Part shown: in pieces, positions 1,701-64,000 of the stretch
Numbering within the stretch: the stretch's first letter is position 1
How the letters are laid out: each line of letters begins with the position of its first letter
Assembly (NCBI GenBank): GCA_964016885.1
Contig: OZ024742.1
Span: 195,734,001 to 195,798,000 of the forward strand
From: Eledone cirrhosa
Lineage: Eukaryota
Reading direction: 5' to 3'
Length of the DNA stretch: 64,000 nt
Program-made: the position numbers and the translations under genes
Notes under the pieces: model-generated
What the model was told of the DNA's origin: nothing
Databases searched by the model: none
Seen by the model: the letters and a program-made list of their open reading frames with translations, nothing else

Positions 1701-1898
1701 GTAGGAGGTGAGTTTTATTGTAGTACAATTATGCATACTCCAGTCCCACAAACTGTAGAGTGCTTCTTATCCGATATCTGCATTGCTTTATTGTACTACA
1801 ATAAAACTCACCTCCTACATTAACTTGCTCCTTAACGGTTGAGCGCTTACTCTCATATTGGATACCTTTTGATGGTCCTTCACCTCTTCTTCTACAAC

Positions 1899-14345: not shown

Positions 14346-14391
14346 CTCTCTCTCTATATATATATATATATGTAAAAGGTAAACAGAAATA

Positions 14392-17300
14392 GCTTGTGGT
14401 GAGAAAGCTATTCCACTTACCGCGAGTCTGCTGGTTCACTCAAAACCGTGCATCAATCTTCGTGTTATAATCCATTCGCCAAGCTGCAGCTTCATCTGGT
14501 ACGTCCGTCTTTCTCCAAGTCACTGCGAGAGACGCAGTCTACAGACGCCGCCTCAGAAACGCATCTGACGTCACTACTCCTCCGCCTCCAGTCAAGCGTC
14601 CCCAGCTTCCGGTCACCTCCTCCACACAGCCCCCACCCCCCACCCCCACCCCCTGATCTCAAGGATCAATCTCCCTCTCACACTGCTGCATGTGATAATC
14701 TGCCGTCCACCCAGGCAGTCGGCGATCCCGTAGCAATCTCCGTAATGTTGGGGCGGCGCTTTCGATTTCCTCTTCCTCTTCCTCGGAGTCCGTCAACACA
14801 ACGATTCTACGGACATCCATGACGTGACGTGGCACTCCGTCCACAGACACGTTATTCTGGGAATTTACGGCCGTTACCGTTCCATTTCCCCATTGAGATG
14901 TGCAGCGTGCGTCAGGGGGCTTAACCCAGACTTCCTCGCCCACCTGTACGAATGCGTTCTCTCTCTACTGGCCGTTGTGGTACCGTGCACGGGTGCCGCC
15001 ACTCGTATTTGTATATCGCTCTGTGTGGCACCGATTCCTCAGCCTGTCCCACCCGAGGGGACATGTTGTACCAAAACACTACCTCCATTGGTGAGATGTG
15101 CCCCCGTTCTGCCATTGCTTTGATTGTGCGGTGGTGTCGCTCCACGATCCCATTTCCGCTCCGCCTGTATGCTGCTCTGAAGAAGCGGTCCACCTTCCAC
15201 CCATCAAGCATTTCCCTCAGCGCCTCCAAGCGGAACACTGCGCTATTATCCATCAGCAGTTCATCCACAGAGCCCCGCTCCAAGAACATCTCTCTCAACG
15301 TCCGTGTGATTTCCTCCGCAGTTCCCATCTTCATTTCCCTCCATATCGCCATCCGTCCCGGTCCACAATCAACCATCGAGAGGTATGTTCCCTGTCGGTA
15401 GTGTGTTACGTCCACCGCCAATCGCTTCCAGTCGCAATCCACCGGGAGACTTCCCGACTTGTGCACACCCGGGGCGGGATCGATAGACGCATCGGACGCA
15501 GCCTCTGACTACTCTCTGGACACTGTCTCTGCTAACGTCGGAATCGATTCTCCTGGCTAGGAACAGGGTCCTATCCACTCCCATGTGGTGCATGGCATGC
15601 AACCCTTTAAGGTCCGACTCGCTCAGCCGACACACAGCGACTATCTCCTCTTCTGCATCCTCCGGCGCTTCCATCCAGGCTTTCTTCACCCTGGTTAAAA
15701 CGTCTGCTCTATTTTTCTCTGAGGGCACGAAGACTACACTCAACTTCAGGCCGAACTCGGTGGCCAGCTCTCCTAGAGTTCCCAGGCGGCGCTTTATCAG
15801 CATTTCTGCCTCCCCTCCCGTTCGCACTCTCTTCTCACTGGTAAGCACTGACCTCACCCATCCGAGTACAGCCGCCGAGTCGGTGCGAATCTCGATGGTG
15901 CGCAGTCCTCACCTCAAGGCGAGGTGGTTCACCCCTTCTTCCTGAGCCAGGCTGCATCCTCGACCTCGACACCTCCTATTTCCAGTGTGACACCTAACGC
16001 TATGCTGCTGGCATCACACCATACGGTCCCGCTCTGGGATTCGGGGACATACCAGCGTCCTCGCACCTTCACCCTCCCCACGATCTCCTGCATCATGGCC
16101 ATCGTCCTCTCTCCCACCTTGTCACTCCAAGTCACCCCGTCCGCTCGTCTCTTGACATAGCTGCATGCCGTCCGGAGCCACCCAGCGATTGGATAGTGAC
16201 CCACTAATTTTCCACACACTGAGAAGAGTTCCCGTCTGTTTATATTTTCGCCCAGTTCCGGGACTTCATTTCCCCTCCGAAATACCAACGTGCCCGTCTT
16301 GTCTCTTCGCAGCCTAAGTCCTAGTGCGGCTCCTCCCTCCAACGCCTCTGACGGCTTCGCAGTCAATCCGTATCCTCGCAAATCGCTTGTGACCTCCGCC
16401 GCCGACACTATAGTCTCGTCCACTAAGATGTCGTCGATGTAGGAATTGGTGGCCCTCTTCATCTTGTCGGCCTTTCCCAGAACGGTCTTGGGGACCGCCG
16501 TCATGATCTTCAGTGCAGAGTTCAGTCCGAAATATGTCCGGCCCTTATACCTGACAAGCTGATACTGCCACAGCTTCTCCTCCACGTGTAACTGTAGATA
16601 TGCCGACTTTAAGTCGACGATCGTGGAAGCCCGCGTTATACGTCTCCACTCGCCCAGAGTTTCCCCGCAGACATCCGTGACCTCACCAACCGTGTGACAC
16701 GACACATGCTCGTTCAGCTCCCGAAAATCTAACACTGGTCTCACCTTGTTCTTCGTGGGTTGCACCACAGCCATTAACGGCAGCACCCCACACTTCATCT
16801 CCTCCTTCCAGGGAACCAGCATGCGCTCCTCGATCCATCTCTCTACCTCTCGCTCAAACTCTCTCCTAGTATCTCCTTTCAGTGTGTGCTGATAGGAGCC
16901 CATTTAGTTTTTCAGTGTTGGCGGTTCTCCCTTCCAGTACCACTCAACAATCCATAGTTGCCTGTCGAACACGGCCTTGAAGTCCTTATCTTGTACGGTG
17001 TGAGCGGCATATTTTTCCTCGTGGGCCTTCTCGCCCTCCTGACGCGTACTCACAGCGCATGCTGGTGCAGCGCCACCAAACCTTACTCCGACATCGGTCA
17101 CTATGACGCCTCCTAATCGGCCAATCGCATCCATGCCCATAACCACGTCAATTCCATCCAATACGCAGTCGACAACAATGGCTGAAAGCCTAATTCTCTT
17201 TCCCCTTACCACCATCTCCACCTCGCTGCGACCTCTACCTTCAATCTTCCTACCGTCGACTGCCCTTATGATACTCTTCCCTCTCCACTTTTCCACCACC

Positions 17301-18457
17301 CCCACAGTCACCAGTGTCGTTGTACAGGACTTTCATCACAGGCAGCGCCTCTACACTCGAGGGGTAGCTACCGGCGCAATAGCCCCCCTTGGACCGTTTC
17401 CCTGATCGCAATTGGTAGCGATGTGGCCCGGCCGCCCACACCGGTAGCAAATTATGTCTGGTTTCGACTCCTTGCAATCTCTCGCCATGTGCGCACCCTG
17501 GCACCTATAGCAACGACCCCTAAACGTGCGCGGGTAACTGTTCGCCGTGTTTGTCACCCTTTCGGCATTTCGCTGTCGGCTGCCCCGGGCCTCCATCGCC
17601 GCTATTGCCGCAACGCTCTTCTTAGCATCTTCCACTATGATGCGGGCTTGCTCTACCAATGTACGCATCTCCATTTCCTTGTAGCTAGGTATTTGCTGCA
17701 GTCTCACCGTGATGTCATCCGGAAATCCGTTTATAAATGCCAACCGCACCGCACACTCGCACTCGACCTGAAACCCCGCCAGCATGGTCAATCTCCTTAT
17801 CTCCGCAGCAAAAATATCCACACACTGACCTTCCCACCTTATCCTTGCCAGCTTGGCAAACGCCGTACACGGACCTTCCGCAAACGCTTCCATCATACGC
17901 CGCTCAATTTTTTGCGCGTCCCTCTGGCTGATTTAGTCCATCTCGAGGTACAATACTAGCGCATCCTCCTCGAGATATAGCGCCATGAGACCGGCCACAT
18001 CGTCTATCTTTTGTAGCTCGGCGACCACCTGAACCTTTCGCATCCAAGCGATAACGTTTCCTTCACCGGTGAAAGCTTTAAGTACTTCACCGCTCAACCG
18101 TAATCTCGTCGCCATGTCTTTAATCTTGCGGTAAGTAATTAGTCTTTGTTTTCAAGTAGCTTTGTCCCTTCTTTTTTTTTATTTCAATTGTACGTCTTCA
18201 TGTGCCGAAATAGCTTGTGGTGAGAAAGCTATTCCACTTACCGCAAGTCTGCTGGTTCACTCAAAACCGTGCATCAATCTTCGTGTTATAATTCATTCGC
18301 CAAGCTGCAGCTTCATCTGGTACGTCCGTCTTTCTCCAAGTCACCGCGAGAGACGCAGCCTACAGACGCCGCCGCGGAAACGCATCTGACGTCACTACTC
18401 CTCCGCCTCCGGTCAAGCGTCCCCAGCTTCCGGTCACCTCCTCCACACAGCCCCACA
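14392..18457 (-). mobile_element. Compact Gypsy-type LTR retrotransposon, degenerate ORFs
   Basis: ~245 bp LTRs (14392-14636, 18213-18457); gag with two CCHC knuckles, protease, RT (LDFRELN, YIDD), RNase H (CDAS), integrase (VDV..MDN..ERHHRTIK); G-rich PPT. Confidence 0.95.
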
Positions 18458-32669: not shown

Positions 32670-32983
32670 TTATTTTTCTGTAATATACAGAGCATCTCAA
32701 TGAATCAATGAAGAGATGGCCAAAATATATCTAATTTATAATAATAGTAAGGTAGATTTTTGAAATCCCTCATATGACTGCTGGCCGATGAGAATTCTCT
32801 TGTCTGGAGTTTGCTGGAGTTTATGGATTTGTTATTAATCGATGACCAGCCGGTTCTCTACGGAATTTGAAACAGGACTGTACCGGCTTACACGTGGATA
32901 TCGTCGATCTAAACCATTATCATTATATAAGAAGTACCAGTAATGTACTGGGTAATTGCTGGCCTTGTGCAAAAACTAGAAAC

Positions 32984-33025
<42 letters not shown>

Positions 33026-33355
33026 GTTTCTAGTTTTTGCACAAGGCCAGCAATTACCCAGTACATTACTGGTACTTCTTAAGAAGCTAGATTTAACACC
33101 TTTCTAGTGGGTCCGGGTATGATTTTACATTCATTTAAATTATTGATGTATTGTTTTATTGATATTTTTTATCTGATTGTCCCGAATCTTCTATTATCGA
33201 TTTTTTATCGTATGGTTGATTTTAGACTTGTTCTATGTGTGACGGTATTTTAACGATAGTTATAGCTCTGATTCATCTGAATTATTGAGCCCTCTGCCGC
33301 TCATTTCGAATCTTGTTTATCGTGAACTCGTGCGCCGATTTTTCGATACTCGATC

Positions 33356-33386
<31 letters not shown>

Positions 33387-33394
<8 letters not shown>

Positions 33395-33802
33395 TAAGAG
33401 GAATTCCAACTTTGTCTGATTTACTCGTTTTATTTACAATCCTTTAAAATATATATAATATGGTATTATAATGAAATAGTATGATAGAATATTAAATTCT
33501 AAGTGTTAATTGAACAAGTACTTTCATGCTTTCGCAATCTTCAGGTTCATGGTATGTGGTGACAGTCGAGTTTGCAATTTTCAACTGTTGAAAATTTTCA
33601 ACAGTTGAAAATTGCAAACTCGACTGTCACCACATACCATGAACCTGAAGATTGCGAAAGCATGAAAGTACTTGTTCAATTAACACTTAGAATTTAATAT
33701 TCTATCATACTATTTCATTATAATACCATATTATATATATTTTAAAGGATTGTAAATAAAACGAGTAAATCAGACAAAGTTGGAATTCCTCTTATTAATA
33801 TA
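33387..33802. repeat. Perfect ~415 bp palindrome carrying two HHRs
   Basis: Centre GAAAA|TTTTC at 33594/33595, no spacer; HHRs at 33640-33678(+) and 33511-33549(-). Confidence 0.92.
33640..33678 (+). ncRNA. Minimal hammerhead ribozyme
   Basis: TGAAC-CTGAAGA-TGC GAAA GCA-GAAA-GTAC-TT-GTTCA; palindromic AAGTACTT. Confidence 0.8.
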
Positions 33803-44750: not shown

Positions 44751-44890
44751 GCTATAACAACACAGTATAGATACACCATAGGTCTTTAGTCTTCATTGAG
44801 TTGAAATGTTTAATGAAAGGAAATGAGGTGAGGTGAGACAAGGTGAGATGAGATGTGAGAAGCTGGAATGAGATAAGAGGATAATTAGGT

Positions 44891-47800
44891 GAGATAAGAT
44901 ATGATGATGCGAGATGAAGTGTGATGAGGTGAGATAAGATATGATGATGCGAGATGAAGTGTGATGAGGTGAGATAAGATATGATGATGCGTGATGAAGT
45001 GTGATGAGATGAGATAAGATATGATGATGCGAGATGAAGTGTGATGAGATGAGATAAGATATGATGATGCGAGATGAAGTGTGATGAGGTGAGATAAGAT
45101 ATGATGATGCGTGATGAAGTGTGATGAGATGAGATAAGATATGATGATGCGAGATGAAGTGTGATGAGATAAGATAAGATATGATAATGCGTGATGAAGT
45201 GTGATGAGATGAGATAAGATATGATGATGCGAGATGAAGTGTGATGAGATGAGATCAGATATGATAATGCGAGATGAAGTGTGATGAGATGAGTTAAGAT
45301 ATGATGATGCGAGATGAAGTGTGATGAGATGAGATAAGATATGATGATGCGAGATGAAGTGTGATGAGATGAGATAAGATATGATGATGCGAGATGAAGT
45401 GTGATGAGATGAGATAAGATATGATAATGCGTGATCAAGTGTGATGAAATGAGATAAGATATGATGATGCGAGATGAAGTGTGATGAGATGAGATAAGAT
45501 ATGATGATGCGAGATGAAGTGTGATGAGATGAGATAAGATATGATGATGCGAGATGAAGTGTGATGAGGTGAGATAAGATATGATAATGCGTGATGAAGT
45601 GTGATGAAATGAGATAAGATATGATGATGCGAGATGAAGTGTGATGAGATGAGATAAGATATGATAATGCGAGATGAAGTGTGATGAGATGAGTTAAGAT
45701 ATGATGATGCGAGATGAAGTGTGATGAGATGAGATAAGATATGATGATGCGAGATGAAGTGTGATGAGATGAGATAAGATATGATGATGCGAGATGAAGT
45801 GTGATGAGATGAGTTAAGATATGATGATGCGAGATGAAGTGTGATGAGATGAGATAAGATATGATGATGCGAGATGAAGTGTGATGAGATGAGTTAAGAT
45901 ATGATGATGCGAGATGAAGTGTGATGAGATGAGATAAGATATGATGATGCGAGATGAAGTGTGATGAGATGAGTTAAGATATGATGATGCGAGATGAAGT
46001 GTGATGAGATGAGATAAGATATGATGATGCGAGATGAAGTGTGATGAGATGAGTTAAGATATGATGATGCGAGATGAAGTGTGATGAGATGAGATAAGAT
46101 ATGATGATGCGAGATGAAGTGTGATGAGATGAGATCAGATATGATGATGCGAGATGAAGTGTGATGAGATGAGGTAAGATATGATGATGCGAGATGAAGT
46201 GTGATGAGATGAGATAAGATATGATGATGCGAGATGAAGTGTGATGAGATGAGATAAGATATGATGATGCGAGATGAAGTGTGATGAGATGAGATAAGAT
46301 ATGATGATGCGAGATGAAGTGTGATGAGATGAGATAAGATATGATGATGCGAGATGAAGTGTGATGAGATGAGATAAGATATGATGATGCGAGATGAAGT
46401 GTGATGAGATGAGGTAAGATATGATGATGCGAGATGAAGTGTGATGAGATGAGATAAGATATGATAATGCGTGATGAAGTGTGATGAGATGAGATAAGAT
46501 ATGATGATGCGAGATGAAGTGTGATGAGATGAGATAAGATATGATGATGCGAGATGAAGTGTGATGAGATGAGATAAGATATGATGATGCGAGATGAAGT
46601 GTGATGAGATGAGATAAGATATGATGATGCGAGATGAAGTGTGATGAGATGAGATAAGATATGATAATGCGTGATGAAGTGTGATGAGATGAGATAAGAT
46701 ATGATGATGCGAGATGAAGTGTGATGAGATGAGATAAGATATGATAATGCGTGATGAAGTGTGATGAAATGAGATAAGATATGATGATGCGAGATGAAGT
46801 GTGATGAGGTGAGATAAGATATGATGATGCGAGATGAAGTGTGATGAGATGAGATAAGATATGATGATGCGAGATGAAGTGTGATGAAATGAGATAAGAT
46901 ATGATGATGCGAGATGAAGTGTGATGAGATGAGTTAAGATATGATGATGTGAGATGAAGTGTGATGAGATGAGATAAGATATGATAATGCGTGATGAAGT
47001 GTGATGAGATGAGATAAGATATGATGATGCGAGATGAAGTGTGATGAGATGAGATAAGATATGATGATGCGAGATGAAGTGTGATGAGATGAGATAAGAT
47101 ATGATAATGCGTGATGAAGTGTGATGAGATGAGATAAGATATGATGATGCGAGATGAAGTGTGATGAGATGAGATAAGATATGATAATGCGTGATGAAGT
47201 GTGATGAAATGAGATAAGATATGATGATGCGAGATGAAGTGTGATGAGATGAGATAAGATATGATGATGCGAGATGAGGTGTGATGAGATGAGATAAGAT
47301 ATGATGATGCGTGATGAAGTGTGATGAAATGAGATAAGATATGATGATGCGAGATGAAGTGTGATGAGATGAGATAAAATATGATGATGCGAGATGAGGT
47401 GTGATGAGATGAGATAAGATATGATGATGCGAGATGAAGTGTGATGAGATGAGATAAGATATGATGATGCGAGATGAAGTGTGATGAGATGAGGTAAGAT
47501 ATGATGATGCGAGATGAAGTGTGATGAGATGAGGTAAGATATGATGATGCGAGATGAAGTGTGATGAGATGAGATAAGATATGATGATGCGAGATGAAGT
47601 GTGATGAGATGAGATAAGATATGATGATGCGAGATGAAGTGTGATGAGATGAGATAAGATATGATGATGCGAGATGAAGTGTGATGAGATGAGGTAAGAT
47701 ATGATGATGCGAGATGAAGTGTGATGAGATGAGATAAGATATGATGATGCGAGATGAAGTGTGATGAGATGAGGTAAGATATGATGATGCGAGATGAAGT

Positions 47801-49170
47801 GTGATGAGATGAGATAAGATATGATGATGCGAGATGAAGTGTGATGAGATGAGGTAAGATATGATGATGCGAGATGAAGTGTGATGAGATGAGATAAGAT
47901 ATGATGATGCGAGATGAAGTGTGATGAGATGAGATAAGATATGATGATGCGAGATGAAGTGTGATGAGATGAGATAAGATATGATGATGCGAGATGAAGT
48001 GTGATGAGATGAGGTAAGATATGATGATGCGAGTTGAAGTGTGATGAGATGAGATAAGATATGATGATGCGAGATGAAGTGTGATGAGATGAGGTAAGAT
48101 ATGATGATGCGAGATGAAGTGTGATGAGATGAGATAAGATATGATGATGCGAGATGAAGTGTGATGAGATGAGATAAGATATGATGATGCGAGATGAGGT
48201 GTGATGAGATGAGATAAGATATGATGATGCGAGATGAAGTGTGATGAAATGAGATAAGATATGATGATGCGAGATGAAGTGTGATGAGATGAGTTAAGAT
48301 ATGATGATGCATGATGAAGTGTGATGAAATGAGATAAGATATGATGATGCGAGATGAAGTGTGATGAGATGAGATAAGATATGATGATGCGAGATGAGGT
48401 GTGATGAGATGAGATAAGATATGATGATGCGAGATGAAGTGTGATGAGATGAGATAAGATATGATGATGCGAGATGAAGTGTGATGAGATGAGGTAAGAT
48501 ATGATGATGCGAGATGAAGTGTGATGAGATGAGATAAGATATGATGATGCGAGATGAAGTGTGATGAGATGAGATCAGATATGATGATGCGAGATGAAGT
48601 GTGATGAAATGAGATAAGATATGATGATGCGAGATGAAGTGTGATGAGATGAGATAAGATATGATGATGCGAGATGAAGTGTGATGAGATGAGATAAGAT
48701 ATGATGATGCGAGATGAAGTGTGATGAGATGAGGTAAGATATGATGATGCGAGATGAAGTGTGATGAGATGAGGTAAGATATGATGATGCGAGATGAAGT
48801 GTGATGAGATGAGATAAGATATGATGATGCGAGATGAAGTGTGATGAGATGAGATAAGATATGATGATGCGAGATGAAGTCTGATGAGATGAGGTAAGAT
48901 ATGATGATGCGAGATGAAGTGTGATGAGATGAGGTAAGATATGATGATGCGAGATGAAGTGTGATGAGATGAGATAAGATATGATGATGCGAGATGAAGT
49001 GTGATGAGATGAGATAAGATATGATGATGCGAGATGAAGTCTGATGAGATGAGGTAAGATATGATGATGCGAGATGAAGTGTGATGAGATGAGGTAAGAT
49101 ATGATGATGCGAGATGAAGTGTGATGAGATGAGGTAAGATATGATGATGCGAGATGAAGTGTGATGAGAT
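44891..49170. repeat. 40 bp satellite, 107 copies, in a MAO intron
   Basis: Unit GAGATAAGATATGATGATGCGAGATGAAGTGTGATGAGAT; exact register, only point variants. Confidence 0.97.
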
Positions 49171-49211
49171 GTGTTGAGATATATTTAGATCAGACAAAAC
49201 AGTCAACTTAC

Positions 49212-49371
49212 CTCTCTCACGCCAGTAAGGCCGTTTGTAGTAGAGGAAGGTCTTAATAACTGTCCCCATAGGAATCCTCTGGATCAACTGGTTACGTAAT
49301 GGTGGCAATGGAGGCTCATATATCATCTTATTCTGCAGTGGTGCTGGAGACGCTAGTATAACTCTCTTACC
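49212..49371 (-). CDS. MAO: MAO exon (GKRVILASPAPLQNKMIYEPPLPPLRNQLIQRIPMGTVIKTFLYYKRPYWRER)
   Basis: 160 nt, tag/gtaag; conserved RNQLIQRxPMGxVIK with the conserved active-site Lys. Confidence 0.96.
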
Positions 49372-49507
49372 CTACAGAGAAAGAAACACATGTTGAAAAG
49401 TATAGGAAAGAAGTCGATCATCAGATATAACTATGGAAAAAATGTTTCTATTGGACTTTCCATTGCTGATACTATCTGTTGGTCATAACTCCTGACAGAA
49501 GAAATAT

Positions 49508-49952: not shown

Positions 49953-50263
49953 ATATATCATTTGAGAAACTCATAGTATTTTGTACATATATATAAAGCA
50001 GAGAATATTTAGGAAAATGAACATATATTAAGGTGCTCTGACCAAACATCCATTGAGCTTTTCTATTGAGAAACATAATCATCATACATTTTATATATGC
50101 TATGATCCCATAACTTAGTATATATATATAACAAAGAAGGTGTGGTAAGATACCAGGTGGACCATAACGTACCAGGGTACTCAATACTTAGGGTAGAGGA
50201 GTGGGTAACAGGATCTAGCTGCCGAAATGGCCGGAGCTCAGCCGTCGGAGTCGTGACTCTTTT

Positions 50264-50341
<78 letters not shown>

Positions 50342-51167
50342 TATGTATACGTACATACATATATGTATTTCTATGGTGATGCGCATCCCCCCCCCCAAAA
50401 AAAAAATGGGGGATGCGCATCACCATAGAAAATAGGGCCTATACTGTGACACATTTTAATAGCTAGGTATAGAAACCCCGGAGTTACCTCCCCGCATGCA
50501 TTAACTCCCCTTAGCCACACACACACTTCCGGGTGGTATTCAATGGCGTTTCTCGAAACGTAACAGCCTCCTGTATTGAACTAAAGAACACCAGACTACG
50601 ATCTCTAACTGGATTGTCAAACGCTCAATATCGAATTGTCGTGGATTATGTGAGGGGCATATAATCGTAAAATACACTCCCCTGACCATGAAAATGTCGA
50701 AGTACATGAAATACTTGACATCCCTTCGCTGTGCATCTCCAATACGTTTAACACTTTTAATGCTTGCACTATTTTTAATGCTTATAACATTTCTCCACAC
50801 ACAGACTCTATCAATCATATAATGAATTTGCCACCAGATCTACCAACCTAACACTCTTGTTTACCTACCTAAGTGCCTCTACCACACATATCTCTCTGCC
50901 ACACTATATAAACAAGACGCACATGCGTGCCACACATATAACATTTGCACTATATAACCGCTTATCTTCATGTTGTATTTTAACCTGTATTTTCGATTTT
51001 TGATTGTACCTATTAATATAAATGTAATCTCGAAGTGTGTACTGCCACTCTAAATTCTGTAATGAATGTTGACCCACAATGTTTGAATATGTATCAATGT
51101 TTGAATATGTATCGGTATGCCTCTCGGCTGAAAAGGAGGTCATATAACTGTCCATGCATTAATAAAT

Positions 51168-51214
51168 TGCTCCGAAAAATCCAAACCTTGGTTTGGAGGA
51201 AACAGCTGTAAGCA
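51168..51214 (+). ncRNA. Decayed HHR related to 14261-14307, ending a PLE 3' UTR-like fragment (~50434-51260)
   Basis: TGCT-CCGAAAA-TCCAAACC/GGTTTGGA-GAAA-CAGCTG-TA-AGCA. Confidence 0.6.
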
Positions 51215-51418
51215 CAATAATGTTTTGAACAGTTCTTTGATTCTTATATTTCATATAACTGCTCTGTAAATCATCTGATGCTTTTACATTGAGCTACTTA
51301 ACTTACTGGTAATAATTTACTGGTAATACATTACTGCCTATCACTATTTAGGGTGTGTGTAAAATACTTATAACTGCATAAGGTTTTGTATTTACATAAC
51401 CATAAATAGTATTACTAA

Positions 51419-51519
<101 letters not shown>

Positions 51520-52477
51520 GTTATGTAATAAACAACATAAGGCAATTATTCCCTTTACCAGTGGTTTCTTAAAAGCAAAAAATGTTACTTTCAATCATTA
51601 GAATGAAAAAATCCTGGTCTATTTATTGATATTGGATTCTAAAAACAAAAATGCAATCTATATGAAAGTGAGGCTGGAGAAGGAAGAAGGAAAGGAAAAA
51701 TAAAATAAAAACACACATGCAAACACACACACACACAATTATATACATACACACACATATATATATATATATATATACATACACTCATAAATACACACAC
51801 ACATATACACATATATGTGTGTATATATATACACACACATACACATACATATACACATACATACATACACACATAAGTATCAACATATCCATACATACAC
51901 ATACATATATACAACCACACACACATATATACACACATATATATAGAAATAGAAATATATATATATATATGCGTACACATACACATACATAGCCATACAC
52001 ACATACATATACATACATACATACATACATACATACATACATACATACACACAATCATACCTATATACACACGTACATACATACACATACTTAATTGTAT
52101 ACATATGCATGCACAAAATTAGAAAAATATACACACACCTCTACATATTCACACACGCAAATAAATATAAGAAAAAATATATATAAAATAATAAACGAAA
52201 ATAAAGACTGTTATAAGTTGACAGCGATACAGGCAACAAATAAATGAACAAACACACGTGGTAAGCAATACACACAAATGCACGTACACATACATACGTA
52301 AAAATAAATACATACACACACTCTCACACATAAATATACATATACAAATACATAAACACATACATACGCATACACAAATACATACACAAACACACACACA
52401 TATACACATATACACACACATATACATACACATATATATATATATATACATATATATTTATATATATATATATATAT

Positions 52478-52558
<81 letters not shown>

Positions 52559-52639
52559 CATATACACACACATACATACATAGCCATACAATTATACACA
52601 TACAAATACGTACATATCACAAACATGCACAACCAAATA

Positions 52640-52782
<143 letters not shown>

Positions 52783-52976
52783 GTGTGTAAAACTCAATCT
52801 TAGATAATTCATATGAACCTTATTTAACTCCAAAATATACATATATATATATATATAGTCATGTAATAAAAAACATAAGGCAATTATTCCATTCACCAGT
52901 GGTTTCTTAAAAGCAAAAGATTTTGCCTTCAATCATTAGAATGAAAAAATCCTGGTCTATCCATATATATACATAT

Positions 52977-53013
<37 letters not shown>

Positions 53014-53054
53014 CACATACATACATTTTGGTATGTGAAGGGTAAGGCAAAAAA

Positions 53055-54256
53055 ATGAAAACTCTTTTGATGTTGCAATGGGTTCATATGACAGTGCGGA
53101 TGTGTGTGACTTAGTAGGATTATTCCTTCTCCACACCCTCAAAGAGAAATTTCCTTCCCATAATATCGGTTTATACCGTGATGACGGATTGGCAGTTTCT
53201 CATACCACCAACGGCCATAACCTTGATAAATTCCGTAAAGATTTAATCAATACTTTTGCTAATCTTAACCTTAAAATCATTATAGATACGAACCTTACCA
53301 ATGCTAACTTTCTTGATATTAATCTTGATCTACTTACCGCCTCTTTTGAACATTATCATAAACCTAATGAAAATCTTAGGTATATACACAAAGAGTCTTG
53401 CCATCCCCCTATAGTTTTTAATAATCTTATTCCTAACATTAGCCGTAGGATTTCTACCTTATCTTCGTCTATAGACATTTTTAATAAAGCCCTTAAGAAC
53501 AGCGGTTTTACAGAAAAATTTTTTTATTTACCTACTCCCCCCCCCCCCCTCTAAAACTAACCACAATAACAGGAAAAGGAAAATTATTTGGTTCACACCC
53601 CCTTCTCTCTAACTGTCAAAACTAATATAGGAAGGAAATTCCTTGAACTCTTAGATAAACATTTTCCTCCTAATCATAGATATTATAAGATATTTAATAG
53701 GAACGTAGTTAAGATCAGTTACTCTTGTTGCCCATCTATGAAGTCCAAGATCACTAGTTCAAATCATACGAGAACAAATCCAGGATGCAGTTGCAGGAAG
53801 CCGGATGAATGCCCATTGCAGGGCAAATGTAACACCAAATCTGTTGTTTATGAGGCTAAAATAACACCGTTAATCAACAACCAGCCAGCCAGGAGTGAGC
53901 GATATGTCGGCATGACTCAGGACAGGTTTAAAACCAGATTTTACTCATATGTCGCTTCTTTTAAGCACTCCGATAAACGAACAACAATAGCCCTCGCAAG
54001 TAAGGTGTGGGAATTCAAGGATAATAACATCCCGTACTCTATCGATTGGTCTATTTTAGACCATTCGAGGGAGTACCAAAGGGGCACAAAGAATTGTTCT
54101 TTGTGTACCACAGAAAAATATAGGATTTTGTTAAACTTGAGAGCCACTTCTGCTTGCCTGAACTCAAAGACCGAGATCTTTAGATGTTGTCCTCATCTGA
54201 AATCACATCTGATCTGTAACTGGATTGACATTCCTATGATAACTCAACCGCCTTGA
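53055..54256 (+). pseudogene. PLE RT (C-terminal half) + GIY-YIG, frameshift near 53550
   Basis: FDVAMGSYDSADVC, GLYRDDGL, FLDINL, CSCR..CPL, VVYEA..YVGMT, CSLC, CPH. Confidence 0.9.
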
Positions 54257-54665
54257 ACTCCTTTCCTGCTCTTTACTTCTACTACGGTTTTTATACCTGC
54301 TGAATCCACGTTCTGTACTCTTGTATTCTCTTTCTCCCTTATCTCCCCATATATTTAACCTTTTCCTATGTCTTTTTCCCCCCTCCTTTTCCCCCCTAAA
54401 TTTTTTTTTTTTTGCCTTACCCTTCACATACCAAAATGTATGTGTATGTGTATATATATATATATATGTGTGTGTATATGTATATATATATGGATAGACC
54501 AGGATTTTTTCATTCTGATGATTGAAGGCAAAATCTTTTGCTTTTAAGAAACCACTGGTGAATGGAATAATTGCCTTATGTTGTTTATTACATGACTATA
54601 TATATATATATATTTTCGAGTTAAATAAGGTTCATATGAATTATCTAAGATTGAGTTTTACACAC

Positions 54666-54703
<38 letters not shown>

Positions 54704-54781
54704 TTGTATTTGGTTGTGCGTGTTTGTGATATGTACGTATTTGTATGTGTATAATTGTATGGCTATGTATGTATGTGTGTG

Positions 54782-55969
<1,188 letters not shown>

Positions 55970-56584
55970 ATGTGTGTGTATATGTGTGTGTGTGTGTTTG
56001 TGTATGTATTTGTGTATGCGTATGTATGTGTTTATGTATTTGTATATGTATATTTATGTGTGAGAGTGTGTGTATGTATTTATTTTTACGTATGTATGTG
56101 TACGTGCATTTGTGTGTATTGCTTACCACGTGTGTTTGTTCATTTATTTGCCTGTATCGCTGTTAACTTATAACAGTCTTTATTTTCGTTTATTATTTTA
56201 TATATATTTTTTCTTATATTTATTTGCGTGTGTGAATATGTAGAGGTGTGTGTATATTTTTCTAATTTTGTGCATGCATATGTATACATTTATGTATGTG
56301 TATGTATGTACGTGTGCATAAAGGTATGATTGTGTGTATGTATGTATATGTATGTGTGTATGGCTATGTATGTGTATGTGTACGCATATATGTATATATA
56401 TATATATATTTATATTTCTATATATATGTGTGTATATATGTGTGTGTGGTTGTATATATGTATGTGTATGTATGGATATGTTGATACTTATGTGTGTATG
56501 TATGTATGTGTATATGTATGTGTATGTGTGTGTATATATATACACGCATATATATGTGCATATGTGTGTGTGTATTTATGAGTG

Positions 56585-56658
<74 letters not shown>

Positions 56659-56708
56659 CGTGTATGTGTGTATTTATGAGTGTATGTATATATATATATA
56701 TATGTGTG

Positions 56709-56741
<33 letters not shown>

Positions 56742-56889
56742 ATAACTGTGTGTGCGTGTGCGTGTGTTTGCATGTGTGTTTTTATTTTTTTATTTTATTT
56801 TTCCTTTCCTTCTTCCTTCTCCAGCCTCACTTTCATATAGATTGCATTTTTGTTTTTAGAATCCAATATCAATAAATAGACCAGGATTG

Positions 56890-56949
56890 TTTCATTCTGA
56901 TGATTGAAAGCAAAATTTTTTGCTTTTAAGAAACCACTGGTAAATGGAA
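56890..56949 (+). ncRNA. Complete type I hammerhead ribozyme (GUA site)
   Basis: CATT-CTGATGA-TTGAAAGC/GCTTTTAA-GAAA-CC ACT GG-TA-AATG. Confidence 0.88.
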
Positions 56950-57136
56950 TAATTGCCTTATGTTGTTTATTACATAACTATTAAGCTCTGTTACTTACAT
57001 AGAGCACTCTTTTTTCCTGGACTTTTCCGACGGAATTACTTCATTTACACACACACACACACACAAATTCGGCCTACTTATATGAAATGATGAGTTAGCA
57101 AAGCACTCGATAAGTTAGGTCCTTAGAGTAATAACA

Positions 57137-57317
57137 TACGTTTAAATAGCTTGACAAATCGAACATTGTGGTAGGCAAAATCTAACACACAATAATATAC
57201 CAAAGTAAGGATAGAACTAACAGGTTTCTCAACCTGTTAGTTCTATCGTTACTTTGGTATATTATTGTGTGTTAGATTTTGCCTACCACAATGTTCGATT
57301 TGTCAAGCTATTTAAAC

Positions 57318-57320
<3 letters not shown>
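57137..57320. repeat. Near-perfect ~185 bp palindrome abutting (TA)n
   Basis: Arms mirror around the TCTC loop at ~57228. Confidence 0.88.
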
Positions 57321-57351
<31 letters not shown>

Positions 57352-57354
<3 letters not shown>

Positions 57355-58726
57355 TTTACATATACATAAAGTCATAGATATATATGTGGCAACCGGTCAC
57401 GTTGTGGCTCAATGAAGAATTAAAAAATTAAATAATCAGACCAAATATCATAAATCATGTCCTTAGAATTATTAGAAAAAATATATACCATTTCCTCTCC
57501 CAATTAGCATAATTAACCATATAAAAAAAATCAATTAAACCAGGCTATAAGAATAAAGGCTCCTATGAAGAAATTTTCGACAAATAACCGAAAGCGGCCT
57601 CTTCGCGGTGACTCCAATAGAGTATTTATCCAACATTTCAACAGCATGTAGAAACTGACTTAATATACCGTCAACCATACACAATTAGGTGTAAATTTAA
57701 ACTTAGAAGAAACGTGTACATACCGTAATTATATCTCTACCATTGTTTCGTCCGTATTTTAAGACATCCTATTGTTAGGATATATCCAGAGTAACAGACT
57801 TATCAGGAGAAAACTCAAGATTAGACAGTTAATTTTCCAAAGCGATCGCGCCAAAAATAGATTCAAAAATGGCTAAGAATCGTGACGTGGCAGTGGTCAA
57901 GTTAGAAAGAATGTGATTAGTTACTTACGGCGGGTAGGCTTGTTGCTAGAAAGCGCAGCCCAATATCGCCCAATTGTATCTCAACTAACGGGAGATTATT
58001 AAATATAAAGATTTACATATACATAAAGTCATAGATATATATGTGGCAACCGGTCACGTTGTGGCTCAATGATATATTGCTCTGATTATTTAATTTATTA
58101 ATTCTTCATTGAGCCACAACGTGACCGGTTGCCACATATATATCTATGACTTTATGTATATGTAAATCTTTATATTTAATAATCTCCCGTTAGGTTGAGA
58201 TACAATTGGGCGATATTGGGCTGCGCTTTCTAGCAACAAGCCTACCCGTCGTAAGTAACTAATCACATTCTTTCTAACTTGACCACTGCCACATCACGAT
58301 TCTTAGCCATTTTTGAATCTATTTTTGGCGCGATCGCTTTGGAAAATTAACTGTCCAATCTTGAGTTTTCTCCTGATAAGTCTGTTACTCTGGATATATC
58401 CTAACAATAGGATGTCTTAAAATACGGACGAAACAATGGTAGAGATATAATTACGGAATGTACACGTTTCTTCTAAGTTTAAATTTACACCTAATTGTGT
58501 ATGGTTGACGGTATATTAAGTCAGTTTCTACATGCTGTTGAAATGTTGGATAAATACTCTATTGGAGTCACCGCGAAGAGGCCGCTTTCGGTTATTTGTC
58601 GAAAATTTCTTCATAGGAGCCTTTATTCTTATAGCCTGGTCTAATTGATTTTTTATATGGTTAATTATACTAATTGGGAGAGGAAATGGTATATATTTTA
58701 TCTAATAATTCTAAGAAAATGAATTA

Positions 58727-58730
<4 letters not shown>
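57352..58730. mobile_element. Retrozyme-like non-coding element, 657 bp unit, head-to-head in (TA)n
   Basis: 57354-57413 repeated at 58011-58071; 58071-58730 is an inverted, permuted copy; HHR-like motifs at 57734-57810(-) and 58369-58445(+). Confidence 0.82.
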
Positions 58731-58773
<43 letters not shown>

Positions 58774-59135
58774 TGTATGTATAGTATATTTGGCAATATA
58801 CTGTATGTTATTTAATATATTGGAACGTCAAGTGTGAAATTTGTAGAAATGTTTTCTTTTTTATACAAATTTCTACAAATTTCTACAAATCTCATACTTG
58901 ACGACCCAATAAGTCATCTTTTTTTAAAGTAAGTTATCGTTTGTGATGATGTTGGTGGTGGTTGTTCTGGATTGGGGGTGGGAGAGCGTTCCTCTATTAG
59001 CTCCTTCAACGTAATCAGTTCAGAGAAAGGAAGAAAGGGGAGGGAGAGGGAATAAAAGGAAAGAGAGAGGAAGAGAAAGAGGAAGAATGGAACAGAAATA
59101 ACCTGGTACTTTAAATAACTATGCTTTATACTTAC

Positions 59136-59224
59136 ATGGAAATCTCTCCCCTTTGCATCTCGAACAGTAACGTGGACACCTGCTTGGTCAATACTGACCA
59201 CAGGATGTTCTAGTAAAACTTTAT
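59136..59224 (-). CDS. MAO: MAO exon (DKVLLEHPVVSIDQAGVHVTVRDAKGRDFH)
   Basis: 89 nt, cag/gtaag, phase-consistent; resembles MAO DQVKLNHPV. Confidence 0.92.
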
Positions 59225-59268
59225 CTGAAACAGAACAAAAATTCAGTACATTATTTACTGTGTATAAG

Positions 59269-59440
59269 TATTGCAGTATCGGTAGAGGGTCGGACGCCAT
59301 GCTTTGCAGCCTAGAGTTACGTCCCTTTACGGTGTAAATTCAAATCCCGCCGAGGTTAACTTCGCCTTTCATCCTTACGGGGTCGATAAAATAAAGTACC
59401 AGCAATACACTGGGTAATTGTGCCAAAAGTAGAAACAATT
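59269..59440 (+). mobile_element. tRNA-derived SINE with 19 bp TSD
   Basis: Same family as 10045; TSD ATTATTTACTGTGTATAAG at 59250-59268 and 59438-59456. Confidence 0.85.
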
Positions 59441-59724
59441 ATTTACTGTGTATAAGCATTATTTAATTCAAGCGGAGTATTTGCAGTGTCGTTGGAATGT
59501 GGATAGAATGTTTTACGGTATTCGTACAGGCTTTCAGCACTCTTTGAGTTCAAATCCCACCAACGGCAACTTTGTCTCTCACATTCTCTTTCTTTCTCCT
59601 TCTCTGGAAATAATCGGCTGTGTTCATTGATTTCTTTTGTAAATCTTAAACAATATATACTTCTTTTCAACAATAAATTCCAAACAATTATATAATATTT
59701 CTTACTAGTCATCAAAACCAATCA

Positions 59725-59875
59725 ACAGGAGCCCCGGGGGACGACCAGAGCATGATGGTTGGATAGCATCCATGAGCTGGTCTCGCTTGGGGATCCAGCC
59801 GGACCTCAACTGGAGACGGTTAATTCTGACAGGGCTCGCTGGAAGGAGAGTCTGAGGTCTCTGCCCCCACAAAAT
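59725..59875 (+). mobile_element. RTE-like LINE 3' remnant
   Basis: Translates to GRP..WLDSI...DRARWK, typical of an RTE C-terminus. Confidence 0.5.
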
Positions 59876-61340
59876 TATCAAATAACTGTTTATTCTTTAT
59901 TAATCAATGTAAAATACAAGTACATATTGAACAGTATCTAAGAAAACAAAACACACTATTAAAGGGAACAGAAAAGGAAGAAGAAAGAAAATGAAAAGGA
60001 GAAAAAGAAAAGGAAAGAAGAATCAAGCAACGAAAGAAAGAGAGAAAGGTGGGGGGGGGGCAGACACTACACCCCAGGCTGAGCGGTGCGTCAGCCACAC
60101 CCTGCAGACAAAACGGCAAAAGCGCTACCGCAGAGAAGTGGGGTGGCTGTTGCAGCAGTTTCTTTGGTCATTCTCCGCGGTAAAGAATATATGATATTTA
60201 TGATTTACAAAAGAAACAAATAATTTTTTTTAAATATCAGAAAGGAGAAGAAAAGTCAAGAAGACATACACACTCAGTTACACACTACAATACGGACTGT
60301 TGGTGTTGCCCTTTAAAAGGGGGAGAGGCATGCTAAGACACTGATGACATAACTGCAGGTGATAGCTATGCTAAGGCGCTGGAACAAAAAGCACCCTCAT
60401 TAACATTACTTATTACTGTCATGAACGCCGCGAATGTCAGAGGCTGGAATATATAATTTAACGATAGTTTACAGTATTTTAACAGTTTATTCAGTTCGGC
60501 CATAGATGTAGTGGTGTTAGAAGCAGTGAAAGAATCACTGATCAGTTAACCTCTAGCCCTCGACACGAAGCCCTAATAGTAAATTCTCCGTCGGTCTCGA
60601 CGATGAGCAGTCACTTCGAGCAACTGAACTGCTATGTACTCGTTAAATTAACTTTAAGCGGTTCAGTATTCTACAAACACATGTAATCTTAATCAGAAGT
60701 GTAGTTGATAGTGTTGAAGGGATAATCCACCTCGGGAGACACTTTTGGGTGTAAGCATGTTTGATGTATAGTGTGTTGCGTTTTTCATGGGATGAGGGGG
60801 CAAGCGAAGGACGGCTCCGGGTAGCAAAATTCTAACTACACTACTGCCCTTAATGTGTCATGGCTAAACGTTTGTACAATATAGAAACGCATTTGACGGC
60901 CATGCGGTTGTGTAAAACTACATAAGTAAACCACAATATGATTTAAAACGAAAAGAGACGAAACAAATATCGAAAGAACCTAACGATTCCGTCACTCTAC
61001 AATCTTCGACTTTTACTTTATTTAGCGACCCCTGGGGGATGAACAACAAAGCTGATCTCGTTTTCATATCAACTCAGAACACGAGGAGTCAGAATAAAGC
61101 CGCAAATTATTTCGTTTAATGCTCTAATGCTCCTGCTAATTCACTGCCCCTGAAGAGAAATAGAATACGGGATGAAAGACATTCCTGCTATGACTGTCCC
61201 GTATTTTATTTCCCTTCAAGAGCAGTGAATTATAAAAAGCGTTAGGTTAGAGCATCAAACAAAATGCTTTGCGATATTTATCCTTAATTCAGTGAGGTCA
61301 TTTTTGTTGTTCAATCCAAACAATTTAGTTAAAAACTTAC

Positions 61341-61401
61341 CTCCAAGATAATTTGCGATAGCCTTACTGATTTGTTGAGAACCTCCGATAAATTTCCTTT
61401 C
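61341..61401 (-). CDS. MAO: Monoamine oxidase coding exon (ERKFIGGSQQISKAIANYLG); most 5' exon seen in window
   Basis: 61 nt, cag acceptor and gtaag donor; resembles MAO-A/B ERKFVGGSGQVS; phase fits next exon (G|AT=Asp). Confidence 0.93.
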
Positions 61402-61622
61402 CTGGAAATAAGAAAAGTTAAGAATAAAGAAATGAACGAAGAGAATAACAAAAATGTATTTACATATGTTCAAATGCTCACAGAGGAGTTTGTGATATAA
61501 AAACAGTAGTTACACATGCATTAAATTCATCTTATATTGTCAAATATACAGTGAGGTGTGAACCAATACATACACACGCACGCACACACACACTTACACA
61601 CACACACACACACTCACACACA

Positions 61623-61702
<80 letters not shown>

Positions 61703-61707
<5 letters not shown>

Positions 61708-64000
61708 ATACTTTGGGAGGGTCATGTTGCCAATAAGAAACACACGCACCAGTTGCTTTCACTTCAATTTATTATAATAAATTTATAAATTTCCGGTTGG
61801 TTGGTTCCACAACCAGATGATTGTTTATAAATTGTCAAAGTTCTTTCGTCACACATTCTGTGACCTCTTCAGTGACTGGGGATTTTTTTCTTTGTTTTTG
61901 TGCCTCTCCTTTGTTCTGTCCTACGCCATCTTGTTTTTGTGTGTGTGTTGCGTGCTTAGTTTGCGCATGTGTTACATCCGGGTGTCTGTGTGTGTTTATA
62001 TTCGTTTATTTATTTGTTTATTTACATGTTACTGGTTGGTTGTTTGTTCTATGTGCGTGTGTGTTTTCATTTTGTCCTTAATTGTAAGTTGTGATGTTGC
62101 TGTTCCATTCATGTTTTCTATTTAATTTTGGTTGAAGTTCATTTGTTTATTGCCTCTGTGATTTGTCTAAACATTGCGTCTTTTCTGTGTGTAGATTCTA
62201 TTTTTATTTCTATGTTTTCTAATTTGCCCTATGTTCTATTTTAGCATGTTGGTAGAGTACAGATGAGTCTTTTCTATCTTGAAGGTCTCGCCAGTGTTCA
62301 TTTATCCGTTCCCCTATACTACGAGCTGTCTCACCTATGTACACTATATTTTTATCTCTACATTGTCCTTCAGTACATCTTATGCTATATACTACATTTC
62401 TAGTTTTACAGTTAATATGGGGGCTTAATTTACAGATTATACATTTCTTATCTATACAGGGAGGTCTTTGAAAAGGGTATGTATTGCTAATAGTGTTTTT
62501 ATGGAGGTACCTGGTCTTTCTACTATCTTAATATTGCGTTTACGTTTATCTAGGGCCCTTCTAAATTTGTAAGCTAATTCATCTCTAGGGGTTGTATCGA
62601 TGAACATTACACTCTGGTATTTATTGCTATCATACCATGAGTTTATTCTATTAGCCTTATTCCTAGTTCTTTCTACTCTATTCCAAAATTTGCTTCTATA
62701 CAAGGGCCAGGTCCCATTTGTGTCATTATTTCCCATTTTTTCCCATTTGGTTCTGGCTCCTCTATACACTCTGATTTTATCTCTCTGATTGTAACCAGAG
62801 AACTGCATACGGTGGATGAAGTGTTGTATGTGTCTCTCTAGTTCTTTGGGGTTGCACATGCGGTACACGTTTCTCATCACCCGTACCAAATCCCCAATCA
62901 GTATGTTGATTTTGGTATGGTCCGAAACAGCTGAGTTTCGGTGGATCAGATATTTGGAAGTCTTGGGTTTGGCATAATAGGAATGGAGGATTTGTTTTTT
63001 GTTATTAATGGTATCTAACCAGAGCTCTGTGTCTAGCACAGGTAATCGATGGTTGGGCTGTTTACTTGGGTAGTCTATAGTAACTCTAATACTCTGGTGG
63101 ATGGAGTTAGCTATTTGCTGGATGCTTTCCATTGTGTTTTTCTCTAATTCCTGACTGTTCTCTAGTGGGGGTGTTTTAACTACGATGTTTATATCATCAA
63201 CGTAGCGGGAGTACATTATCAGGGTTAAGGTGTCTTCTAATTGTTCTTTAAGTTTAAGTTTAAGTCTACTGTCCCACCATACCATGAATAAGTTAGCTAT
63301 GTCGCCTGCAATGCTAACACCAATGGCTGCTCCTTCCTCTTGGGCATATGTTTTTCCATTAAAAAAATAGCTTACAAATTTAGAAGGGCCCTAGATAAAC
63401 ATAAACTCAATATTAAGATAGTAGAAAGACCAGGTACCTCCGTAAAAAGACTTATTAGCAAGACATACCCTTTTCAAAGACCCTCATGTATAGATAAGAA
63501 ATGTATAACCTGTAAATTAAGCCCCCATATTAACTGTAAAACTAGAAATGTAGTATATAGCATAAGATGTACTGAAGGACAATGTAGAGACAAAAATATA
63601 GTGTACATAGGTGAGACAGCTCGTAGTGTAGGGGAACGGATAAATGAACACTGGCGAGACCTTCAAGATAGTAAAGAACCATCTGTACTCTACCAACATG
63701 CTAAGATAGAACACAAGGATAAATTAGAGAACATAGAAATAAAAATAGAATCTACACACAGAAAAGACGCAATGTTTAGACAAATCACAGAGGCAATAAA
63801 CATAAAAGAATTACAACCTAAATTAAATAGAAAATATGAGTGGAACAGCAACATCACAACTTACAATTAAGGACAAAATGAAAACACACACGCACATAGA
63901 ACAAACAACCAACCTGTAACATGTAAATAAACAAATAAATAAACGAATATAAACACACACAGACACACGGGTGTGGCGCATGCGCAGACTGAGCACACAA
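61703..64000. mobile_element. PLE of a second clade (YVDD RT): minus arm 63365-61703 and inverted plus arm from ~63368 running off the window
   Basis: QEEGAAIG, YSRYVDD, VLDTEL; GIY-YIG VVYSI..YIGET on both arms; HHR at 61834-61876(-); left end in a TA run. Confidence 0.92.

Follow-up and report, generated by a model that had tools for sequence, protein, structure and literature searches.

Probable ribozyme damage shared by the two arms of a 657-bp hammerhead element inserted head-to-head

If two inverted arms of one insertion carry the same unusual letter in the core of a hammerhead ribozyme, was that letter already present in the RNA from which the arms were copied? The locus that raises this question lies in a 64-kb stretch of DNA, the whole of which was analysed and is referred to here as the window; it is AT-rich and microsatellite-rich, has the look of animal DNA, perhaps octopus-like, and contains several retroelement and transposon fragments. 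The initial annotation of the locus had reasoned that, because both arms share an A at core position 8, the template must already have had it. The sharing was confirmed, but the inference does not follow, since a template origin is one of two explanations and the clustering of rare letters along the arms (p=0.027) leans toward later copying from arm to arm. We put a probability of roughly 0.55 on the account developed below as a whole, in which a multi-copy 657-bp element with canonical CUGAUGA relatives was mobilised in the Penelope-like manner, was damaged in this copy and subsequently underwent conversion between its arms.

Mapping of the arms bore out the layout that had been proposed, namely a 657-bp unit, a left arm of about one unit plus 60 bp and a right arm consisting of an inverted unit. 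The unit length of 657 bp is given by the spacing of two copies of one 16-mer within the left arm, and the insertion has the following parts.

57319–57350, no strand: (TA)n tract at the left edge, the likely target site as judged from its sequence
57343–58072, minus strand: left arm, one 657-bp unit plus 62–73 bp, with its 3′ end at the left TA tract
58069–58072, no strand: 4-bp microhomology at the head-to-head joint
58073–58105, plus strand: 33-bp spacer of unit sequence between the inverted arms, which recurs in the second round of the left arm
58069–58732, plus strand: right arm, one unit plus 6–7 bp, with its 3′ end at the right AT tract
58729–58770, no strand: (AT)n tract at the right edge, likewise the likely target site

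The excess of the left arm over one unit amounts to 62 bp if the match is exact, or to 73 bp with mismatches that reach into the TA tract; its outer limit is accordingly 57343 or 57354, depending on the mismatches allowed, and its inner limit is 58072 on the minus strand. The right arm is permuted, as it begins 37 bp earlier in the unit than the left arm. In both arms, the sense 3′ end faces outward into a (TA)n tract and the 5′ end lies at the centre, where the arms meet. As an inverted pair, the arms comprise 465 nt that are 99% complementary, which is far beyond chance, and their comparison revealed 12 events over 621 bp, consisting of 10 substitutions and two indels. The unit is low in GC (34%) and non-coding, the longest ATG-initiated open reading frame, present once per arm, having 47 amino acids at a 40-amino-acid cut-off. 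In addition, its predicted fold is more stable than that of shuffled sequences, with z-scores of −3.5 for the linear form (20 shuffles) and −4.4 for the circular form (40 shuffles). A near-perfect palindrome of 186 bp (57136–57321), with no second copy within the window, touches the left TA tract of the element.

Each arm contains a type I hammerhead motif, and the elements named in the initial annotation (CTGATAA, GAAA and an inner hairpin) were found letter for letter in both. The same is true of the change from G to A at position 8, which is present at 58378 on the plus strand and at 57801 on the minus strand.

58369–58445, plus strand: type I hammerhead motif, right-arm copy, with a helix I of 4 bp and the core at 58373–58379
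57734–57810, minus strand: type I hammerhead motif, left-arm copy, with the core starting at 57806 and position 8 at 57801
58378, plus strand: core position 8, A in both arms of the locus and G in family reads
58435, plus strand: loop-3 position, A in both arms, where the C of the family completes a perfect 8-nt palindrome

In the right arm, helix II has 6 bp and carries the inner hairpin, GAAA is located at 58430–58433, and the 2-bp helix III is closed by a 4-nt loop; N17 is the A at 58441, after which the cut is predicted. The corresponding predicted cut in the left arm follows 57738, and the loop-3 lesion of that arm lies at 57744. The locus presents a CUGAUAA core in both arms, on opposite strands and with the cores 567 bp apart. 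Since Rfam returned no match at the gathering score across the 64-kb window, and none of its 129 weak matches over 50000–64000 belonged to a hammerhead family, the identification as a hammerhead is based on the motif together with its stems and on the reads of the family. A search with a degenerate pattern of the ribozyme gave no matches in metagenome contigs and none in viral contigs.

What the two altered letters would mean for catalysis can be judged from pairing. The Watson-Crick pair between positions 3 and 8 is absent from this copy, where C3 faces A8, and present in family reads, which have G8. That the C3-A8 mismatch is harmful had been proposed before, and we agree that damage is to be expected: in a Penelope-like hammerhead, a single G8C or C3G change abolished cleavage, but not insertion (PMC11167929). 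A search of the literature on G8A and C3-G8 found no direct test of C3-A8 in the papers covered. Furthermore, a palindromic helix III is described as allowing such hammerheads to work as dimers (PMC4209133). For helix III, the predicted duplex energy amounts to −11.2 kcal/mol with the palindrome of the family, to −1.4 kcal/mol in this copy and to −4.7 kcal/mol in a mixed pair of this copy with a family member, the mixed helix being predicted to retain 5 pairs. Little or no ribozyme activity is predicted to remain in this copy.

The state of the family was read from sequencing runs. Eleven runs were listed, six of which, from three organisms, contain part of the unit, with no RNA run listed among these, a result that bears in neither direction on expression; four (X1, X4, X6 and X9, the latter consisting of raw reads of a DNA library) were aligned to 58069–58730 at a likeness of at least 80%. 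At this threshold, 3230 X1 contigs and 4262 X9 reads aligned to the unit and displayed many polymorphic sites, these figures being counts of matches and not copy numbers. The initial annotation had allowed for the element having no other genomic copies; the X1 and X9 matches demonstrate that this is not the case. In the best run, 0.66 of the sampled words were present, close to the fraction of 0.56 of 31-mers that are free of the 12 copy-level letters, which fits with a very close family of which this exact copy was unseen.

At core position 8 (58378), the family letter turned out to be G. In X9, it was present in 42 of 46 raw reads with 11 start places (95% interval 0.79–0.98), the depth of 46 comparing with several hundred to 1,300 reads elsewhere, so that most family members were unread there. 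The X1 contigs, 13 in number, had G throughout (692.1 of 692.1 depth units), as had the one X4 contig (4.01 of 4.01), and X6 had no coverage at this position. The letter of the four non-G reads in X9 was not displayed, and contigs drop rare variants. The dip in depth over the 5′ half of the ribozyme was given no biological meaning, since some records are dropped during alignment. These counts indicate that A8 is not the family state, and they contradict the suggestion that it represents a tolerated variant core. Beyond what had been described before, a second lesion was found at 58435, where this copy breaks the loop-3 palindrome that the family keeps. Here, C was present in 223 of 230 X9 raw reads and accounted for contig depths of 21688 out of 21750.5, 19.8 out of 19.8 and 4.2 out of 4.2, the C-bearing contigs numbering 34 in X1, four in X4 and two in X6. 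Altogether, both lesions, A8 and the disrupted palindrome of loop 3, very probably represent damage to this copy and not a trait of the family. At 58429, which is C11.1 of helix II, 74 of 230 raw reads and both X4 contigs have a T, corresponding to closure of the helix by G-U in some family members.

Joints between units that go back 657 bases were detected in two X1 contigs, one X6 contig and nine X9 reads, and further joints with variant letters between the units were present in X9 and X4. Together with the left arm, which is longer than one unit, these back-joints establish a head-to-tail organisation of the short unit, while no long arrays were seen. Since a unit-to-unit joint exists in genomic DNA, both in the left arm and in the X9 DNA library, junction reads cannot prove the existence of a 657-nt circle. 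The inversion joint of the locus itself (58069/58106, opposite strands) was represented by no read or contig in the four aligned runs, and one X1 contig has a different opposite-strand joint within the 657-bp family (58069/58458).

The element is probably a non-autonomous Penelope-like element, or animal retrozyme, and represents a new family of a known kind. With the animal non-LTR retrozymes as they are described in PMC7229834 and 10.64898/2026.07.22.740005, it shares a non-coding unit of low GC content that carries a single type I hammerhead, units joined head-to-tail in DNA and a predicted structured RNA. The unit of 657 bp falls within the range of 51–972 bp given in the retrozyme preprint (Li, Clavereau and Pollet 2026, 10.64898/2026.07.22.740005) and is longer than the ∼300 bp typical of the retrozymes in Cervera and de la Pena 2020 (PMC7229834). 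Unlike the tandem array described for animal retrozymes, however, the locus is arranged head-to-head and both copies of its ribozyme are damaged. The preprint regards a copy as 'active' if it has two consecutive intact hammerheads (10.64898/2026.07.22.740005), whereas the motifs of the present locus are on opposite strands and both damaged; this lowers its standing as an active copy, but not its membership of the retrozyme family.

The hammerheads of Penelope-like elements described by Cervera and de la Pena in 2014 (PMC4209133) likewise have a short helix I, a 6-bp helix II closed by G10.1-C11.1 and a 2-bp helix III with a palindromic loop, the latter being the form seen in the family. That study also noted pairs of hammerheads on opposite strands 100–700 bp apart, in line with the 567 bp observed here. 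In contrast to the hammerheads described there, the present motif has a long inner hairpin in helix II and no unpaired base after A9, the locus has no linked open reading frame, and A8 is uncompensated as opposed to the published U3-A8 covariation. With the insertion pattern reported for the Hydra clade of Penelope-like elements (Craig et al. 2021, PMC8557442), the locus shares the combination of a partial tandem with an inverted copy attached through its 5′ end, the (TA)n target, and fragments of Hydra-type open reading frames with DKT and CxCX5C in the same window. A sequence link between the 657-bp unit and the terminal repeats of the Penelope-like fragments was not found within the 64-kb window. 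Insertions in inverted arrangement, targeting of (TA)n and, in vitro, insertion that does not depend on the hammerhead have all been published already (PMC8557442, PMC11167929).

A sister element of the same layout is located at 54938–55939. Its unit measures 555 bp; the left arm exceeds one unit by 153 bp, the inverted right arm extends over 296 bp, and (TA)n is present on both sides. Its repeats are 100% identical and an intact CUGAUGA is found at about 55790. In unit coordinates, the 3′ end of its right arm overlaps the 5′ start of its left arm by ∼39 positions, an overlap of the kind expected from twin priming. The 657-bp element had been called unrelated to this neighbour, which is now doubtful. 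The score of an unanchored comparison of the two units (52) stayed below the best of 200 shuffles (55) and was not significant. When anchored and performed without the ribozyme, the comparison of segments picked by eye gave a z-score of 3.5, which was reached by 2 of 500 shuffles and by none of 443 window segments, and in these segments the blocks have the same order and the outer ends are at matching places. On the basis of this weak collinear similarity, the 555-bp element is probably a distant relative of the 657-bp element.

The differences between the arms bear directly on the question of when the lesions were acquired. At eight of the 12 arm differences (58249, 58293, 58356, 58457, 58669, 58716, 58718 and 58723), the letter of the family is found in the left arm and a minority letter in the right, which indicates that the arms aged separately. 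The other four differences were absent among the 40 of 258 difference rows listed and presumably belong to the left arm. Among the same 40 of 258 rows, four family-rare letters are common to both arms, namely those at 58378, 58435, 58518 and 58566, the last being more frequent in X9 (18% non-family) than in X1 (2%). Shared sites at which 11–30% or more of the X1 depth has the letter of this copy, such as 58256, 58360, 58466, 58483, 58602 and 58604, were left out as subfamily polymorphism. Along the arm, the events occur in the order DDDDSSDSSDDDDDDD, where D denotes a difference between the arms and S a shared rare letter, and all four shared letters fall in one interval.

58357–58640, plus strand: candidate conversion tract of 284 bp with four shared rare letters and one arm difference, mirrored at about 57539–57822

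The 337 bp outside this tract contain 11 arm differences and, among the rows listed, no shared rare letter, with further shared letters outside the tract being possible beyond these 40 of 258 rows. Each arm diverges from the family by 1.6% within the tract and by the same amount beyond it, but the changes are common to both arms in the former zone and specific to one arm in the latter. In tests that were devised after seeing the data and that involve 16 events only, 49 of 1820 orderings were as clustered as the one observed (p=0.027), and a simulation gave p=0.018 for the location of all four shared letters within the widest gap that contains no more than one arm difference; the gap in arm differences taken alone was not significant (p=0.07). 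Seven of the 12 arm differences are located in the AT-rich outer 90 bp, and uneven mutation could mimic a tract. A gradient of likeness from centre to edge was sought in ten other inverted pairs of the window, where no general trend was apparent. Inverted repeats can undergo gene conversion, and the pattern of shared and arm-specific letters is what would be expected if both arms had first aged and one had then been overwritten by the other. The evidence leans toward this interpretation, and we slightly favour a conversion step after insertion as the way in which the lesions spread between the arms.

As for the insertion itself, the element was likely mobilised by a Penelope-like retrotransposon. 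Penelope-like elements are reported to form partial tandems, often with an inverted 5′-truncated copy, and the Hydra-clade families to insert into (TA)n (PMC8557442). In vitro, a purified Penelope-like protein cut and extended both target strands at AT-rich DNA and started reverse transcription inside the RNA; catalytic mutations of the hammerhead left insertion unaffected, unprocessed RNA being the main substrate (PMC11167929). Presumably, an RNA of more than unit length, either a multimer or a circle, was reverse-transcribed from both ends of a break in the (TA)n tract, each cDNA beginning at an AT-rich site, and the two cDNAs were joined via the 4-bp microhomology. Fold-back of one cDNA is an alternative to two primings on the more-than-unit RNA. 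Each arm would then have gathered about 1.6% of private change, and a gene-conversion tract of ∼280 bp would have copied the changes of one arm, including both ribozyme lesions, onto the other.

The four family-rare letters common to both arms could also have been inherited from a damaged source, that is, a minor older genomic copy carrying all four that was reverse-transcribed by a helper. We regard this as possible, at clearly less than even odds. The ribozyme would then have been dispensable, or an intact RNA of the family would have performed the cut in trans within a mixed dimer, which agrees with the 5 pairs (−4.7 kcal/mol) predicted for the helix III formed between this copy and a family member; fold-back of one cDNA would also place template letters in both arms. 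A damaged source is furthermore consistent with the right arm being almost exactly one unit, as if a circle had been read once, and with the four non-G reads at 58378, which could stem from sibling copies. In addition, mobilisation of a ribozyme-dead RNA would come as no surprise, given that mutation of the hammerhead does not impair insertion of a Penelope-like element in vitro, where unprocessed RNA is the main substrate (PMC11167929). However, letters derived from a template should spread over the whole arm, whereas the shared letters are confined to one tract (p=0.02–0.03), and no X1 or X4 contig has an A at 58378, although contigs drop rare variants. An extended version of this idea, which we consider improbable, holds that the doubly damaged source RNA was made into a 657-nt circle by intact family RNAs that cut it in trans in a mixed double-hammerhead, and that this circle was read through a single time and inserted head-to-head; if true, this would be a natural case in which intact retrozyme copies complement the ribozyme of a damaged one, so that a parasite is itself parasitised.

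Less probable still is an effect of assembly, either because the inversion is a fold-back chimera or because polishing with reads that map to both arms homogenised the arm middles. The failure to see the joint of the locus (58069/58106) in the four aligned runs would fit with this, but the flanks are not mirrored, the centre consists of 33 bp of unit sequence with microhomology, and the arms are distinguished by 10 substitutions and two indels, with the family letter in one arm at eight sites. The same layout in the neighbouring element and the X1 contig with another opposite-strand joint (58069/58458) also argue against it, and the 100% identity of nearby repeats suggests that base accuracy is high. 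Even if the arms had been polished, A8 would be real in at least one of them and still rare in the family. We give the least credence to C3-A8 as a working core of the family or of a sizeable subfamily. Natural core variants do exist, as exemplified by U3-A8 (PMC4209133) and A6C (PMC7151607), and most family members are unaligned over the 5′ half of the ribozyme, leaving their position 8 unseen. Nevertheless, the closest aligned relatives carry G (42 of 46 reads; all X1 and X4 contig depth), the published U3-A8 keeps the pair while C3-A8 does not (PMC4209133), single G8C or C3G changes abolished cleavage (PMC11167929), and loop 3 of the same copy bears a second lesion.

As it stands, the locus adds one family of the retrozyme type and is otherwise ordinary and of little consequence. 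It does illustrate that a variant common to two inverted arms need not derive from the template. If, on the other hand, the letters had come from a damaged source, the locus would parallel, in a genome, the in vitro finding that Penelope-like insertion needs no cleavage by the hammerhead, and would be relevant to the question of how these ribozymes serve their elements. The 555-bp and 657-bp families, with their matching outer ends, could help to map the starts of Penelope-type reverse transcription on non-coding passengers.

Several further features of the window were recorded. Fragments of Penelope-like open reading frames are located at 1836–4297, 11862–12722 and 53039–54256, with a CxCX5C linker in all three and DKT in the first; they are candidate helpers, assigned to the Hydra clade by motif only. 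A GIY-YIG match for 3653–4297 was below the cut-off. Additional type I hammerhead motifs with canonical cores and a palindromic helix III are found at 384, 5312, 28132 and 56897. The family of the last has copies at 51518–51695, 52855–52960 and 54494–54599, two of which are inverted around the fragments at 53039–54256. An inverted arrangement of another Penelope-like family occupies 62049–63923, with a reverse-transcriptase fragment at 62452–63390 on the minus strand and a GIY-YIG fragment at 63292–63870 on the plus strand. Two palindromes at 33392–33797 (406 bp) and 32928–33081 (154 bp) have arms that are 100% identical and are probably young inverted insertions. A long tandem array with a 40-bp period and a strong G skew extends over 44770–49400. 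Lastly, direct repeats of 244 bp (97%) at 14386–18450 surround GC-rich DNA with a weak integrase match, and are probably the remnant of an LTR retrotransposon.
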